Assembly (NCBI RefSeq): GCF_054482525.1
Contig: NZ_CM137006.1
Direction: 5' to 3' (one strand)
DNA: 64,000 bases
Shown here: piece by piece, positions 1,914 to 53,193 of the stretch
Numbering within the stretch: the stretch's first letter is position 1
Layout: every line of letters starts with the position of its first letter
Program-made: the position numbers and the translations under genes
Notes under the pieces: generated by a model
Databases searched by the model: none
The model's input: only the letters and a program-made list of their open reading frames with translations
Told to the model about the DNA's origin: nothing

Positions 1914-3325
1914 TGCGCGCTCCTTTTTCGCCGCGAAATAGCTACATTTTGATGCGTATCGTTCGGCACTCTGGCAAAGATGAACGCCGGAAGGGCGATG
2001 ATAAACGCCATGCTAAGCCAGGTGTACATAAAGACGGTTTGTGTGGTGCCGCTGTCGACGCTGACATGCTGTGAACCAAAAAGTCCCAGCAACAGCCCGG
2101 CGATAGTGACGCCGATACTCATCGACAATTGCATAATCATCGACAGCAGGCTGTTTCCGCTGCTCGCCAGATTGTCCGGGAGATCTTTCAGCGTCAGGGT
2201 GTTCATGGAGGAGAAACGCGTCGAGTTGACCATCCCTTGTAAAAACAGGACGAACGGCAAAACGTAGTACCAGCCCAGCAGAGCAGTGGTCATAAACAAC
2301 AGGGTGACCAGCGACAGACCCAGCGTGGTCGCCACCAGTACCCGACGATAACCAAAGCGATTCACTACCTGTACCACAATTCGCTTCATCCCCATGCTGC
2401 CGAGCACCATCGGGATCATCATCAGTCCGGCATGAAACGGTGAGAAGCCAAGGCCAATTTGCAGGAAAACCGGCGTCATAAAGGGCAACATGCCGCTACC
2501 GATACGTCCGGCAAAGCTCCCCGCCAGGCCCAGCGAAAAGGTACGAGTGCGGAACAGTTTCAGACTGAACAGGGCGCGGTTGTTATTTCTGGCGTGCAGC
2601 AGATAAAGCACCAGTGCCACCACGCCAACTGCGACCAGGCCAGCAATCGCCAGCGGCGATAAACCTGTACCTTTACTGCCGTCCAGCGCCAGGGTTAATA
2701 CCGCCATGCCAACCGCCAGCAATAAAAAGCCGGAGAGATCAAAGCGCCGCGTCTGCATGGTGTAGTTCGGCATTAACATCAGTGTGGCGATCGCACCGAT
2801 AATCCCCACCGGAATGTTGATCAAAAAGATCCAGTGCCAGGAGGCGTACTCCACCAGCAGGCCGCCGAGCGCCGGACCGAGCAGCGGCCCGACCTGACCG
2901 GGTAACGTGACAAAGGTCATCGCCGCCATATATTGCTCGCGCGGTACGATTTTCATCACCGTAAGCCTTCCGACCGGCACCATCATCGCACCGCCAACGC
3001 CCTGTAACGCGCGTGCCAGCAACAGTTCGTTCAGCGTGCCGGAAAGCGCGCAAAACAGTGAACCGAGAGTAAACAGCACGATGGCGGTAAAGAAAATATT
3101 GCGCACGCCGACTTTGTCCGCCAGCCAGCCGCTGGCGGGCAGCATCACCGCCACGGTCAGTACATAAGAGACAATGACCATGTGCATATGCAACGGACTT
3201 TCCCCGAGACTTTGCGCCATTGAGGGAAGCGCGGTGTTAACGATGGTGGTGTCCAGCGACTGCATAAAGAAGCCGAAAGCCACAATCCACAATTGCCAGC
3301 GGGTGCTGTCGGGAAGATCTGTCAT
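1910..3325 (-). CDS. mdtD: MFS transporter MdtD
   Basis: 471-aa polytopic membrane protein; its stop overlaps the baeS start. Position and length match mdtD of the mdtABCD-baeSR operon. Confidence 0.9.
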
Positions 3326-10999: not shown

Positions 11000-11145
11000 C
11001 TGAAACGGGAAAGCCCCTCCCGAGGAAGGGGCCATAAATAAGGAAAGGGTCATGATGAAGCTACTCATCATCGTGGTGCTCTTAGTCATTAGCTACCCAG
11101 CATACTAAGACTACCAGGGCGGGGGAAACCCCGCTCTACCCTCAC
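11000..11145 (-). ncRNA. sibB: Sib-family antisense sRNA (antitoxin) overlapping ibsB; boundaries approximate
   Basis: A minus-strand promoter-like element lies downstream of the ibs stop (TTGACA as reverse complement of 11174-11179; weak -10 near 11151-11156). A minus-strand hairpin followed by a U-rich tract lies near 11000-11040. The extent is inferred, not mapped. Confidence 0.4.
11052..11108 (+). CDS. ibsB: Ibs-family type I toxin, 18-aa hydrophobic peptide (MMKLLIIVVLLVISYPAY)
   Basis: Hand-translated ORF preceded by the SD-like AGGAAAGGG. The peptide matches the Ibs toxin family. The A/B assignment is from memory of the K-12 peptides and the copy nearest mdtA. Confidence 0.75.
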   Translation: MMKLLIIVVLLVISYPAY

Positions 11146-11329
11146 TCCTGAAAGTATGCCTTCACGATAAGATTGTCAATCTGCAGGCTTTGCAGTCTGC
11201 GATCCTGCCAGCAAATATTCTTTGCGAGACGTTACGCAATAATCACACTGGAAACTATTTTATCCGCAAGTCAGCGATAGACTGCATACAGGGCGAAAGG
11301 AGGTAAGCCGACGATTTCAGCGGGACGCT

Positions 11330-11480
11330 GAAACGGGAAACCCTCTCCCGGAGAAGAGGGCTTTTAATAAGGAAAGGGTTATGATGAAGCACGTCATCAT
11401 ACTGGTGATACTCTTAGTGATTAGCTTCCAGGCTTACTAAGAACACCAGGGGGAGGGGGAAACCTCTCCCTAACCCTCAC
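11330..11480 (-). ncRNA. sibA: Sib-family antisense sRNA (antitoxin) overlapping ibsA; boundaries approximate
   Basis: Same architecture as the first unit: minus-strand -35-like TTGACA (reverse complement of 11509-11514) and the hairpin CCCTCT...AGAGGG at ~11341-11360. Confidence 0.4.
11381..11440 (+). CDS. ibsA: Ibs-family type I toxin, 19-aa hydrophobic peptide (MMKHVIILVILLVISFQAY)
   Basis: Hand-translated ORF in the second repeat unit, with an SD-like GGAAAGGG upstream. Confidence 0.75.
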   Translation: MMKHVIILVILLVISFQAY

Positions 11481-11660
11481 TCCTGAAATTATGTCACTCC
11501 GCCCTTAGTGTCAATCGACGGCTCTCCGTTCTTGCGAGGCGAATAGCAAAATTTTCTGCGCCGCCGGGCCTAATTCTGAAAGTTTCTTCGTTTGCTCTTA
11601 TTTCATTGTTGCAGTCGGTATGATACCGGACCTCGATAATTCTCTAAGAAAGGATTTCTT

Positions 11661-24525: not shown

Positions 24526-26109
24526 TCACACCTCGTATTCCATCTCGCCATCCTTATGCAGCGGAATAATCTGCACCTTCTGCACGCGATGGCTTTCCAC
24601 CTGCAACGTTTTAAGCAAATAATCCCCCACCTGAACTTCTTCGCCAGGTTTTGGAATACGCTGCAAATATTCCATCAGCAGCCCGGCAATGGTGTGATAT
24701 TCACGTTTCTCGTCCAGCGGCAGCGGCACATATTGCACCAGATCTTCCAGTGGCATATGACCATTCGCCGTCCAGGAACCGTCCGCATTCTTCTGAATAT
24801 CATGGCGGGCGTCGATCTCTTCCACTTCGTTCGGTAAGTTACCGGCAATGGTTTCTGTGACGTCACTTAATGTCACAATCCCTTCCACTGAACCAAACTC
24901 ATCCACCACAAAAGCAAAGTGCGTGCGGGCATTACGGAACTGCTCCAGGGCTGGTAACAACGGCAAGGTTTCCGGGAACACCAGCGGCTGGCGAATCAAC
25001 ACCCGCAGGTTGAGCGGTTCGCCGCGCAGTGACTGTTGTAGCAGGTCGATAACGTGAACAACACCGAGCAAATCTTCCGCGTCGTCACCGTCGGTAACCA
25101 CCAGCCGCGTATGCTGATTTCGCTCCAGCAACTGGCGGATTTCCTCTTCCGGCGCGTTGAGATCGATATGCTCAATATCGTGGCGCGACGTCATAATGCT
25201 GCTGACGGTACGCTGGTTAAGATTAAGGACCCGCTCAATCATCCGCCGCTCCTGCGGATTAAAGATCTGCTGGTTACCATGATCCACCAGCATGGACGCG
25301 GTTTCGGCATCCAGTTCCGCATCTTCTTTTTGCCCGCTAAGCAGGCGCATTACCGCTTCGGTAGTCCGCTGGCGCAGTGTCTGGTTAGCGGAAAGAAAAC
25401 GTCGTCGGTTAAAGATAGCCAACTGATTGAGCGCCTCGATCATCACCGAGAAGCCAATGGCGGCGTACAGGTAGCCTTTCGGAATGACGAAGCCGAAACC
25501 TTCTGCCACCAGGCTAAAGCCAATCATCAACAGGAAGCTTAAGCAGAGAATAACGATGGTCGGGTGACTGTTAACAAATTGCGTTAACGGCTTGCTGGCC
25601 ATCAGCATCAGGCTGATAGCGATAACCACGGCGGCCATCATGACCAGTAAATGGTCGACCATCCCGACGGCGGTAATCACTGAGTCGAGTGAGAAGATGG
25701 CGTCCAGTACCACAATTTGTGTCACCACCCCCCAGAACTTCGCACCTTTGCGTTGTGTGGGGTTATTGCTGTCTTTCCCCTCCAGCCGTTCGTTCAGCTC
25801 CATCGTGGCTTTGAACAGCAGGAAGAAACCACCAAACAGCATGATTAAGTCGCGGGCGCTAAAGGTAAACGAGCGGAAGCTGAACAGCGGTTGAGTCAGG
25901 GTGACCAGCCAGGAGATTGACGCCAGCAGTAACAGGCGCATTAACATCGCCAGCAGCAGCCCGGTAACCCGTGCGCGGTCGCGCTGCTTCGGTGGTAGTT
26001 TTTCGGCGAGGATGGCAATAAAGACCAGGTTATCAATGCCGAGGACCAGTTCGATCACAATCAGCGTGATTAACCCGGCCCAGATAGACGGATCGGCAAT
26101 CCATTCCAT
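24526..26109 (-). CDS. yegH: TerC-like membrane domain plus CBS pair and CorC/HlyC C-terminal domain transporter-associated protein
   Basis: The ORF track gives 549 aa. I place the start at the ATG (reverse complement of 26107-26109, [16 protein letters not shown]...), giving 527 aa. Confidence 0.8.
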
Positions 26110-26550
26110 AGTAAGTACAAAACCTATTCGTTGTATGACAAATGTCACAATTCGATCATGGATAAATCGGGGCAAAAATGCAATGTTGCAGCACTATTTA
26201 TCTCATATTATTTGAGGTTTATAACCTCACATTATCCCTGAATTAAAAGTGGTAATAATAAAACATTATTTAAGAAATATCGCATGTGGAGACACTATAT
26301 TAAATATTGTCAACCTAAAGAAACTCCTAAAAACCATATTGAATGACACTTAATATAATTCTTAAAAATAGCCAATTGCCGAATTGTTACCTTGCCTGCT
26401 ATTCCGTTAGCTGTAACACTTCCTCCTGCATTATTGGAGAGCCAATATTCAATTACCATAATGTCACCTTATATTCGGAAGTTAATTTCCGCAATAACCC
26501 TTTCTCATCAACGACTGTATGTTGAGAGGGTTTTAAAAATTAAGCTAAAT

Positions 26551-26589
26551 CAGTGTATTGGTAGCTAAAAAGCCAGGGGCGGTAGCGTG
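26551..26589 (+). promoter_or_regulatory. JUMPstart element with ops site (GGCGGTAGCGTG) in the wza leader; RfaH-dependent antitermination signal
   Basis: CAGTGTATTGGTAGCTAAAAAGCCAGGGGCGGTAGCGTG contains the two GGTAGC half-sites and the ops core at 26578-26589, about 180 bp upstream of the wza start. Confidence 0.85.
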
Positions 26590-26767
26590 TCTGGATGCCT
26601 GAAAGACCAGTCTGAATTATTCTGTCAATAGCCTGCGGATGAAATCAATTTTTTTAGGACTGATGCCAGTTAAATTTTTATTCAATTAACTGCAAGGTAA
26701 ATGTGCATGGCGACATTGCTATTAACAGTGCACAGGATAATTACTCTGCCAAAGTGATAAATAAACA

Positions 26768-30549: not shown

Positions 30550-30579
30550 GCCGGATAAGGCGCTCACGCCGCATCCGGC
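30550..30579. repeat. REP-like palindrome between wzc and wcaA
   Basis: GCCGGATAAGGCGCTCACGCCGCATCCGGC is an inverted repeat of the REP family. Confidence 0.65.
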
Positions 30580-40921: not shown

Positions 40922-41022
40922 CAGTTGAATAATCAACCGGATTAATTCTCCGGTAAATAACGACAAAAACAAAATTGGCCGTTTCGGTCAGGGCCAACTA
41001 TTGCCTGAAAAAGGGTAACGAC

Positions 41023-50691: not shown

Positions 50692-51585
50692 ATGACGAAT
50701 TTAAAAGCAGTTATACCGGTAGCAGGTCTTGGGATGCATATGTTGCCTGCCACTAAGGCGATACCCAAAGAGATGCTACCGATCGTCGACAAGCCAATGA
50801 TTCAGTACATTGTTGACGAGATTGTGGCTGCAGGGATCAAAGAAATCCTCCTGGTAACTCATGCGTCCAAGAACGCGGTCGAAAACCACTTCGACACCTC
50901 TTATGAATTAGAATCTCTCCTTGAACAGCGCGTGAAGCGTCAGCTGCTGGCGGAAGTGCAGTCGATCTGTCCACCGGGAGTGACCATTATGAACGTGCGT
51001 CAGGGCGAACCTTTAGGTTTAGGCCACTCCATTTTGTGTGCGCGACCCGCCATTGGCGACAACCCATTTGTCGTGGTACTGCCAGACGTAGTGATCGACG
51101 ACGCCAGCGCCGACCCGCTGCGCTACAACCTTGCTGCCATGATTGCGCGCTTCAATGAAACGGGCCGTAGCCAGGTGCTGGCAAAACGTATGCCGGGTGA
51201 CCTTTCTGAATACTCCGTTATTCAGACCAAAGAGCCGCTGGATCGTGAAGGCAAAGTCAGCCGCATTGTTGAATTTATCGAAAAACCGGATCAGCCGCAG
51301 ACGCTGGACTCAGACATCATGGCCGTTGGTCGCTATGTGCTTTCTGCGGATATTTGGCCGGAACTTGAACGCACTCAACCTGGTGCATGGGGGCGTATTC
51401 AGCTGACTGATGCCATTGCTGAACTGGCGAAAAAACAGTCCGTTGATGCAATGCTGATGACCGGTGACAGTTACGATTGTGGCAAGAAAATGGGCTATAT
51501 GCAGGCGTTTGTGAAGTATGGACTGCGCAACCTGAAAGAAGGGGCGAAGTTCCGTAAAGGTATTGAAAAGCTGTTAAGCGAATAA
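50692..51585 (+). CDS. galF: UTP-glucose-1-phosphate uridylyltransferase paralogue GalF
   Basis: 297-aa ORF starting [41 protein letters not shown]; marks the 5' flank of O-antigen clusters. Confidence 0.93.
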
Positions 51586-51838: not shown

Positions 51839-51877
51839 CAGTACGCTGGTAGCTGTTGAGCCAGGGGCGGTAGCGTG
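51839..51877 (+). promoter_or_regulatory. JUMPstart element with ops site (GGCGGTAGCGTG) in the O-antigen cluster leader
   Basis: CAGTACGCTGGTAGCTGTTGAGCCAGGGGCGGTAGCGTG has the same architecture as the wza-leader element; ops core at 51866-51877, about 80 bp upstream of wzx. Confidence 0.85.
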
Positions 51878-51957: not shown

Positions 51958-53193
51958 ATGTTAAAAAACATCATCTATTTATTAAGCGTTCAAGGTGGCA
52001 ATTATATATTTCCATTGGTCACACTGCCTTATCTTGTCAGGATCCTTGAACCTACAGGATACGGGATATATGGGTATAGTTTTGCTGTGGTCCAATATTT
52101 TATATTATTTATTGATTACGGATTTAACTACTCAGCGCCCAAAATCATATCAATATCAAGGGAAAATACTGATTCCATAAGTAAAGTTTTTTGGAATGTA
52201 ACGTTTATCAAAATAATTGCAGCATCTCTTGGTTTGTTAATTATTTATTTAATTTCGGAATTGAATATCATTGATTACCAAATTAAATTTATCATTCTTG
52301 CATACATATCTGTCGTAGGAAATTTAATATATCCAGTATGGTTTTTTCAAGGGCTGGAAAAAATGTTAGGAATAGCGATAAGTATGTTTTCCGCACGCTT
52401 ACTTACACTATGTTTAACATTTTTATTGGTTAAAAGTGAAAAGGATCTTGGTATAGCGATAACAATACAATCATCAATAACAGTTATTGCAGGTATAATA
52501 TCTACATATTTTTTATTTTCTCTTAAAAAAATAATATGGGTACCACCATCCTTATCCAAAATGAAAGAGTTAATTTATGATGGATGGCATTACTTCATTT
52601 CCTCTGCAGCAATAAGCCTTTATACTACTAGTTCAACAATAATATTAGGTGCATTATCAGGAACAACTGCAGTGGGATATTTTATCGCTGCAGATAAAAT
52701 TAGGCTTGCACTACAAGGCGTTATTGGTCCTATAACCCAAGCTGTTTTTCCTAGAGTAACTTATATAATGAAGGATAATCATGACGATGGACTATTATTA
52801 GCCAGGAAAGTGTTTCGATGGCAATTTTCACTGATGTTCGTACTTTCCATATTTCTTTACTTTTTTGCAGACGATATAATTTTAATCATGTATGGAAAAA
52901 CGTATCATGAATCTTTAGAAATACTCAAGGTTTTAGCTTTTACTCCAGCAATAGTTACGGTAAGTAATTATATTGCAATTTTAGTAATGATCCCTATTGG
53001 TATGAAAAAAGAATTTACAAAAATTATTACTACCAGTGGATTAATAGGCCTACTGATAATTACTTATTTGACTAATGAATACTCAGGAGTTGGTACAGCA
53101 ATAGGAGTTATTTCAACTGAGTTTATAATAATGGCGAGATTTTACTTTTTGATTAAGAAAACAAATAAATTAAATAATTTAAATTTATTGTAG
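51958..53193 (+). CDS. wzx: O-antigen flippase Wzx
   Basis: 411-aa AT-rich polytopic membrane ORF with a PST-family N-terminus (...IFPLVTLPYLVRILEPTGYGIYG...). Confidence 0.8.
   Translation: MLKNIIYLLSVQGGNYIFPLVTLPYLVRILEPTGYGIYGYSFAVVQYFILFIDYGFNYSAPKIISISRENTDSISKVFWNVTFIKIIAASLGLLIIYLISELNIIDYQIKFIILAYISVVGNLIYPVWFFQGLEKMLGIAISMFSARLLTLCLTFLLVKSEKDLGIAITIQSSITVIAGIISTYFLFSLKKIIWVPPSLSKMKELIYDGWHYFISSAAISLYTTSSTIILGALSGTTAVGYFIAADKIRLALQGVIGPITQAVFPRVTYIMKDNHDDGLLLARKVFRWQFSLMFVLSIFLYFFADDIILIMYGKTYHESLEILKVLAFTPAIVTVSNYIAILVMIPIGMKKEFTKIITTSGLIGLLIITYLTNEYSGVGTAIGVISTEFIIMARFYFLIKKTNKLNNLNLL

Follow-up and report, generated by a model that had tools for sequence, protein, structure and literature searches.

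The region between yegH and wza in this stretch of DNA is the control region of the colanic acid (wca/cps) operon of Escherichia coli: the feature has been described before, and its RfaH part has already been shown by ChIP. That the region unites the promoter and the 5′ leader of the operon, controlled by Rcs and then by RfaH, we hold to be about 90% probable; within this reading, we infer the exact transcription start, the element bound by RcsAB, and that the termination to be overcome is Rho-dependent rather than intrinsic.

The window (the whole 64-kb stretch of DNA that was analysed) is E. coli chromosome. Positions 26110-26767 are 100% identical to the chromosome of E. coli PCN033, where the region is annotated as flanked by yegH, of the TerC family (− strand), and by wza-wzb-wzc (+ strand); of 5426 complete E. 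coli genomes, 4831 contain the intergenic region, nearly all of them at an identity of at least 95%. K-12 MG1655 aligns to the window without gaps, with 12 mismatches over 761 bp, which leave the upstream elements, the promoter block, JUMPstart and ops untouched (Table 1). The preliminary description had noted an AT-rich non-coding stretch before wza, and AT-rich it is: GC content is 34.5%, compared with 49.3% for the whole window, and in 200-bp windows it runs at 28-40% in the intergenic region vs 50-58% in the flanking genes, so that, relative to its flanks, the region has the base composition of an H-NS-silenced regulatory region. The length had been put at about 590 bp and has to be corrected to 658 bp because the annotated yegH start lies at 26109, the position to which the K-12 start (2137902) and the PCN033 start both map. 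The earlier left edge, at 26176, stems from a TTG-extended reading frame that was listed mechanically as 24526-26175.

Table 1. Features of the yegH-wza region and its surroundings (positions in the window)
Feature	Position	Strand	Basis and remarks
yegH (TerC-family membrane protein) CDS	24526-26109	−	PGAP annotation of the 100%-identical PCN033 locus; ATG at 26109
AT-rich yegH-wza intergenic region	26110-26767		658 bp, 34.5% GC; published as H-NS-bound, silenced
Element 1, TAAGAAATATCGCA, candidate RcsAB box	26271-26284	+	9/14 of TaAGaatatTCctA, 6/6 core; centre at about −150
Element 2, TTGTCAAC then TAAAGAAACTCCTAAAAA	26307-26333	+	RcsB-type half-site TCCTA; centre at about −104
Element 3, CTTAATATAATTCTTAAAAA	26349-26368	+	Half-site TCTTA, TAAGAAT on the − strand; centre at about −70
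Predicted σ70 core promoter	26392-26420	+	Conservation; −35 TTGCCT 26392-26397, −10 AACACT 26415-26420
JUMPstart, 39 nt	26551-26589	+	Rfam RF01707; includes 5-bp hairpin 26558-26562/26572-26576
ops element, GGCGGTAGCGTG	26578-26589	+	On the non-template (coding) strand; 190 nt from the wza ATG
ops-distal leader with three strongly conserved blocks	26614-26767	+	Per-column conservation 80-100%
Distal block 1, ATTATTCTGTCAATAG	26614-26640	+	Conservation
Distal block 2, TTTTTAGGACTGATGCCAGTTA	26651-26680	+	Conservation
Distal block 3, GCACAGGATAATTACTCTGCCAAAGTGATAAATAA, reaching the ATG	26721-26767	+	Conservation
Colanic acid operon wza-wzb-wzc-wcaABCDEF-gmd-fcl-gmm-wcaI-cpsB-cpsG-wcaJ-wzxC-wcaKLM	26768-49296	+	PCN033 annotation, matching ORFs

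The JUMPstart element with its ops core is real and lies far beyond chance. Its match to RF01707 spans model positions 1-38 of 38 and reaches 57.3 bits (E 2.8e-12), the gathering score being 35; GGCGGTAGCGTG fits the consensus of the 12-nt ops, GGCGGTAGnnTG, and is on the non-template strand, coding-sense for the operon. The preliminary description had noted a 39-bp JUMPstart and placed its ops core at exactly 26578-26589, and the ops motif scan that it had proposed bears this out: the pattern GGCGGTAGNNTG has two copies in the 64-kb window, where 0.06 are expected, and none of 100 shuffles reaches two. wza begins 190 nt 3′ of ops, a conserved promoter-like block ends 158 nt 5′ of it, and ops would lie at about +151 relative to the predicted start.

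How general is this arrangement? With Wza as the query, 80 related loci were collected; they represent about 25 genera of enterobacteria, among them Citrobacter, Salmonella, Enterobacter, Kosakonia, Lelliottia, Phytobacter, Franconibacter, Atlantibacter, Trabulsiella, Buttiauxella and Cedecea. Exact GGCGGTAG precedes wza in 75 of the 80 loci: 74 have it 186-199 nt from the ATG and one at 308 nt (distances corrected for Wza matches that start at residue 10). One further locus carries a variant of ops with a single mismatch that still scores above the Rfam threshold; since another locus is truncated, 79 can be evaluated, and JUMPstart is present in 76 of these orthologous leaders, about 190 nt from the ATG (308 nt in one). 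JUMPstart is absent altogether from three loci that form a Pseudescherichia vulneris clade; because this clade nevertheless retains the promoter, ops is not indispensable everywhere. When 76 leaders are aligned, a sharp footprint of the region emerges, in which blocks that are 80-100% conserved (26307-26333, 26349-26368, 26386-26420, 26551-26590, 26614-26640, 26651-26680 and 26721-26767) are set off from essentially unconserved sequence (26190-26265, 26285-26305, 26430-26550 and 26695-26720). The distance from the promoter to ops varies among these leaders (172-210 bp), while the spacing of the upstream elements is rigid.

Published data place RfaH at this very element. In a CFT073 strain lacking hns and stpA, an identical ops gives an RfaH ChIP-seq signal, and the accompanying data set lists it at −190 from wza, on the non-template strand, within the UTR and with RfaH signal “Y” (PMC9765446). 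In the same strain background the wza promoter region is occupied by H-NS: in the wild type H-NS covers the promoter, and a σ70 peak upstream of wza appears only when H-NS and StpA are missing (PMC9765446). The model proposed there is that RfaH counteracts the pausing brought about by H-NS and, with it, the Rho termination that follows (PMC9765446). Elsewhere, control of wca by JUMPstart-RfaH and by RcsA/RcsB is taken as established (PMC9976346; see also PMC2478693), colanic acid is termed “an RfaH-regulated process” (PMC3101779), and a paper on E. coli K92 deals with the control of colanic acid by RfaH (Navasa et al., 2014, cited in PMC9765446). The preliminary description had predicted RfaH-dependent antitermination, and this prediction is supported: the Rfam hit, its correct strand and position and its recurrence in 76 of 79 leaders all speak for it, and the literature agrees (PMC9765446; PMC9976346; PMC3101779).

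Could the conserved element work by other means? That JUMPstart acts mainly as an RNA element, through its hairpin and not through recognition of ops by RfaH at the DNA level, is improbable. The Rfam class is a cis-regulatory RNA with a hairpin, the hairpin here is 98.8% paired over 32 species, and RNAalifold finds an alternative 7-bp pairing of its 5′ arm with a conserved UGCCAGU at about 26667-26673, and under this reading the hairpin would perhaps switch to a pairing with the GCCAGUU block further downstream. However, the pairs are nearly invariant, or change only from U-A to U-G, and covariation is therefore almost nil; the leader folds no better than its shuffles (single-sequence z = +0.77); and RfaH is at this ops by published ChIP (PMC9765446). 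Far less credible still, and effectively refuted already, is the notion that the ops match is a chance occurrence or a non-functional relic. It could appeal to the silence of the wza locus in rich medium, where RfaH gives a signal only after deletion of hns and stpA (PMC9765446), and to the loss of the element in one clade, but it would have to explain away the score of the full element (E 2.8e-12), its conservation at a fixed distance in 76 of the 79 evaluable leaders next to a stretch (26430-26550) that is almost unconserved, and the published RfaH occupancy (PMC9765446).

As for the promoter, the start entry for wza in the CFT073 data set is “NA” (PMC9765446). From the alignment, the core promoter is predicted as TTGCCT-17-TG-n-AACACT, with the TG at 26412-26413 (TG-n-AACACT, 26412-26420), a start near 26427 (K-12 coordinate about 2137584) and, from there, a leader of about 340 nt. 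Nowhere else in the region is conservation as high, and the block is constant in length; its consensus is CCTTGCCTG...GCTG[T/C]AACA[C/A]T, the −35 TTGCC[T/A] is near-invariant, and the critical A(−11) and T(−7) of the −10 hexamer are kept in every variant. A generic promoter scan of the region does not call this block; its single hit, at 26435-26462, was rejected, as it lies in unconserved sequence and one hit compares with 4.1 expected by chance. The corresponding generic scan for terminators finds none in the region. Two other candidates were discarded as well: a match to mir-320 at 26489-26545, which reaches 18.7 bits against a gathering score of 55.5 and is a chance match to a weak hairpin and T-run in an unconserved stretch, and a 49-aa PGAP reading frame on the − strand (26310-26459), which just 2 of 76 orthologous regions have in intact form and which overlaps the promoter blocks that are conserved.

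Where would RcsAB bind? The consensus of the RcsAB box is TaAGaatatTCctA, in which capitals mark the conserved positions and the right half is that of RcsB; it is credited to Wehland and Bernhard, 2000 (PMC4325325; PMC3950696). The preliminary description had pointed, with little confidence, to an RcsAB-like string as a possible mark of the Rcs-dependent promoter. The string, TTAAGAAATATCGCA, is present, at 26270-26284 and hence 2 nt to the right of the 26268-26282 given for it, and as an operator the call is probably right: element 1, which it contains, is the only 6/6 core match to the consensus on either strand of the intergenic region, is conserved, and keeps a rigid spacing. It does not mark the core promoter, because it lies about 150 bp upstream of the predicted start. 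Nor did the RcsAB motif scan proposed alongside that for ops settle the matter, as the score by itself does not rise above chance: when the 658-bp region is shuffled by mononucleotides, 16% of the shuffles have a match that is equal or better, and 76% have a 10/14 match. Because the region is so AT-rich, motif score cannot decide among candidate boxes.

Conservation and likeness to other boxes speak for element 1 as the published wza box. In other genera, element 1 is conserved as TARGAWATATCGCA while its flanks vary; there it reads TAGGA(A/T)ATATCGCA, in unrelated surroundings. At its position 3 the A is kept in only 9 of 70 leaders, most other genera having G (TAGGA...). In the 41 leaders in which a strict motif search found element 1, it stands 88-90 bp from element 3. 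Compared with the consensus, element 1 agrees in all six conserved positions and departs from it in the right half, which is TATCGCA and not ATTCCTA. A full-core match upstream of E. coli rcsA, TAAGGATTATCCGA, which we take to be the published rcsA box, is identical to element 1 at 10 of 14 positions. The full 6/6 core is likewise found in the galF box of Klebsiella pneumoniae, TAAGATTATTCTCA (cited in PMC3438125). Two features sit awkwardly with element 1 as the box: its distance of about 150 bp from the predicted start, and the better conservation of elements 2 and 3. None of the three candidate box sequences receives a relevant mention in the literature searched.

Elements 2 and 3 are separated by a fixed 34-35 bp, and element 3 is retained in the clade that lacks JUMPstart. 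On the K-12 chromosome, the box-like sequences of elements 1, 2 and 3 correspond to 2137740-2137727, 2137695-2137682 and 2137660-2137647, respectively. Element 3 could also be read as a direct repeat of the PmrA type (CTTAAT-N6-CTTAAA). A PmrA box is a direct repeat with N5 spacing; because the spacing here is N6 and not N5, this reading was dropped.

Two alternatives bear on this upstream half. The Rcs operator may instead be element 2 (as TAAAGAAACTCCTA, 26316-26329) and/or element 3 (as TAATATAATTCTTA, 26351-26364), with 26271-26284 bound by some other factor; we regard this as possible, if doubtful. Each of the two scores 10/14 (element 3 on both strands), has a clean RcsB-type right half facing the promoter (TCCTA and TCTTA, respectively), and is 90-100% conserved in the 75 other leaders, compared with 60-90% for element 1; moreover, their centres lie at usual activator positions, and in 71 of 71 leaders element 3 and the −35 block are a fixed 30-31 bp apart. 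Against them counts that both have a core of only 5/6, missing the capitalised G4 (A in one, T in the other), whereas element 1, the galF box and the match upstream of rcsA all have the full core, and that element 1 is itself a clear footprint with fixed spacing. Were transcription to start further upstream, near 26366, with TATAAT at 26354-26359 as the −10, element 2 would overlap the −35 region, the 26386-26420 block would be a transcribed leader element, and the box at 26271-26284 would fall at about −89, a more usual distance. This is unlikely: the hexamer is perfect in E. coli, and TTGTCA at 26307-26312 matches a −35 at 5/6 positions, but no −35 has a workable spacing (TTGTCA is 41 nt and TTGAAT, at 26339-26344, 9 nt from TATAAT), and other genera have TATTAA or TCTTAT in place of the hexamer, in which the critical T(−7) or A(−11) is gone. 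The block TG-n-AACA[A/C]T, by contrast, retains both bases everywhere, with the near-invariant TTGCC[T/A] at a 17-nt spacer. On our reading, element 1 is probably the RcsAB box; the two operator readings are not exclusive, as several sites may act together, and the operator region is likely multipartite.

If the region holds anything undescribed, the one place where it might lie is the leader between ops and wza. The three distal blocks of this leader are conserved to the same degree as ops over about 25 genera of enterobacteria, and blocks 2 and 3 are kept in the Pseudescherichia clade that has no JUMPstart. Insertion of IS1 into precisely the 26614-26767 interval gave an evolved K-12 strain a stronger colanic-acid phenotype (PMC8117528, supplement), which suggests that the ops-distal interval matters. 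A covarying RNA structure was sought between ops and the ATG and none was found: RNAalifold gives −9 kcal/mol with zero compensatory pairs. A local hairpin (26667-26673/26686-26692) is weak, being 76% paired with few double changes. A longer pairing of 11 bp (26615-26625/26732-26742), 90% paired, was rejected because block conservation explains it: 249 of 500 shuffles equal it, and stems as long as this occur in 19% of shuffles. The alignment likewise holds no conserved small reading frame in the ops-distal leader; one of 16 codons on the + strand (26638-26688, MKSIFLGLMPVKFLFN), lying over one of the conserved blocks, is broken in one Citrobacter (L004) and in Salmonella (L021), as read from stops or frameshifts in the leader alignment. 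We suggest, tentatively, that the distal blocks could form an undescribed cis-regulatory module and that the three rigidly spaced upstream elements point to a multi-site complex, either Rcs or anti-silencing, in place of a single RcsAB box; the distal module could be a protein or sRNA binding site, or could control translation initiation after RfaH has been loaded.

Downstream of the leader, the operon runs for 22.5 kb from the wza start to the wcaM stop, with 20 tightly packed and co-oriented genes, in keeping with the extent of about 22 kb ascribed to it earlier; ops here stands before a long operon whose product is a surface or extracellular component, with 20 genes for colanic acid. What would antitermination act against in such an operon? 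Intrinsic terminators were considered as the target and set aside, as sites of this kind are not in excess inside the operon (13 vs 13.0 and 19 vs 15.6 expected from shuffles); the lack of an excess fits a Rho/H-NS target rather than hairpin terminators. A C-over-G bias of the rut type is modest, with C/G falling from 1.7 to 1.3 over the ~100 nt that follow the predicted start, and is lacking later in the leader; it is not decisive.

In general, ops makes RNA polymerase pause and is recognised through the non-template strand of the DNA, and RfaH keeps NusG out. The course of events at wza may be pictured as follows. Under normal conditions, H-NS keeps the AT-rich DNA silent. When the Rcs envelope-stress phosphorelay is active, RcsA-RcsB would bind an upstream operator, most likely TAAGAAATATCGCA at 26271-26284, perhaps assisted by the RcsB-half-site-like elements at about −104 and −70, and would switch on a weak σ70 promoter (TTGCCT-17-AACACT with an upstream TG), with transcription starting near 26427. 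Some 150 nt further on, RNA polymerase would transcribe JUMPstart and pause at ops (26578-26589), where the exposed non-template strand would recruit RfaH. The RfaH-modified polymerase would resist pausing and exclude NusG, and would therefore escape H-NS-promoted pausing and Rho-dependent termination over the 190-nt leader and the 22.5-kb, 20-gene operon.

The closest relative of the region is the JUMPstart/ops leader of the colanic acid (cps/wca) operon of E. coli K-12 (Hobbs and Reeves, 1994; Stout, 1996; Stevenson et al., 1996; cited in PMC9976346): the locus is the same, the order from wza to wcaM is the same, and nothing of substance differs, the strain background here being O11/PCN033-like. 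The other RfaH-ops regulons of CFT073 (rfa/waaQ, rfb/wzx, hly, kps and tra; PMC9765446) also combine a non-template-strand ops in the leader with a long H-NS-bound operon, and the 12-nt ops of rfaQ, wzx and tssH is identical to GGCGGTAGCGTG (PMC9765446). Unlike in these regulons, at wza initiation itself is silenced and needs a signal (Rcs), which is why RfaH occupancy at wza is cryptic in the wild type in rich medium. The distance from ops to the first gene differs as well: 190 nt for wza, compared with 71 nt for wzx in CFT073 and 92 nt for wzx in the window. Group 1 capsule and Klebsiella cps leaders likewise place ops/JUMPstart before an operon for Wza-Wzb-Wzc export (PMC3438125). However, in these loci the RcsAB box and JUMPstart belong to different promoters (P1 at galF and P2 at wzi, with JUMPstart 5′ of wzi), while in the wza region an RcsAB-like box and JUMPstart share one stretch of 658 bp.

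The elements confirmed here bring no novelty, and they give correct coordinates for annotating the window. The cross-genus footprint separates the functional blocks (upstream elements, core promoter, JUMPstart and distal blocks) from filler, and the naturally ops-less clade of Pseudescherichia vulneris could serve as a comparison for the RfaH dependence of the operon. In E. coli and its relatives, colanic acid serves as the general exopolysaccharide of stress and biofilms. Its operon, on a silenced AT-rich locus, is controlled in two layers in textbook fashion: initiation in response to a signal, through Rcs, followed by processive antitermination by RfaH.

Downstream of ops, the wza leader retains three blocks that are 80-100% conserved across genera. 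In these blocks, neither an RNA structure nor an ORF is supported: an 11-bp pairing between 26615-26625 and 26732-26742 is possible only, and a hairpin formed by 26667-26673 with 26686-26692 is weak. On the yegH side of the intergenic region, another block (AAATGTCACAATTCGATCATGGATAAAT...AAATGCAATGT), moderately to strongly conserved, lies 32-77 nt upstream of the start of yegH, which is on the opposite strand; this block matches no Rfam family and probably serves yegH as its promoter or 5' leader.

Is the 49-aa “hypothetical protein” WP_162829205.1, which PGAP annotates here in many E. coli genomes, a real gene? We rejected this possibility: because just 2 of the 76 orthologous regions have its ORF uninterrupted, and because that ORF lies atop the conserved promoter and operator blocks, the annotation of WP_162829205.1 as a gene is almost certainly spurious.

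A second full JUMPstart, whose ops (GGCGGTAGCGTG) is identical to that of the wza leader, is the leader of the O-antigen cluster, as its placement between galF (50692-51585) and an O11-type O-antigen wzx (51958-53193) indicates; none of the wza leader blocks is present 3' of this copy. Inside the colanic acid operon, an “algC RNA” motif occupies the cpsB-cpsG gap, immediately upstream of the phosphomannomutase gene, and a REP-like GC-rich hairpin (GCCGGATAAGGCGCTCACGCCGCATCCGGC), which has no T-run, is found in the 92-nt wzc-wcaA gap; group 1 capsule clusters carry a stem-loop attenuator at the equivalent position. Elsewhere in the window, two Sib antitoxin RNAs presumably represent a tandem Sib/Ibs type I toxin-antitoxin pair.

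Coordinates and scores of the features (window positions unless a locus is named)
Feature	Position	Strand	Score
Sib RNA (RF00113)	11037-11179	-	142 bits
Sib RNA (RF00113)	11366-11514	-	150 bits
yegH-side block	26141-26186		
WP_162829205.1 ORF	26310-26459	-	
Three ops-distal blocks	26614-26767	+	
REP-like hairpin	30550-30579	+	
algC RNA (RF02929)	40969-41018	+	78.2 bits (Rfam gathering score 33.8)
Second JUMPstart	51839-51877	+	57.0 bits
ops of second JUMPstart	51866-51877		
ops variant, Citrobacter	L005:2813-2824		41.8 bits (JUMPstart)
Leaders without JUMPstart	L035, L036, L039: ~2630-3000 in each		

In the wza leader of Citrobacter sp. On2M, the second base of ops is changed from G to A (GACGGTAGCGTG) within an otherwise normal JUMPstart. 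In Pseudescherichia vulneris and two close relatives, JUMPstart and ops are absent from the wza leader, and the first distal block is likewise missing; these leaders still have the promoter block and upstream element 3, as well as the TTTTAGGACTGATGCCAGTTA and pre-ATG blocks, and their overall length is similar. The P. vulneris-type leader is a natural variant of the wza leader without ops.
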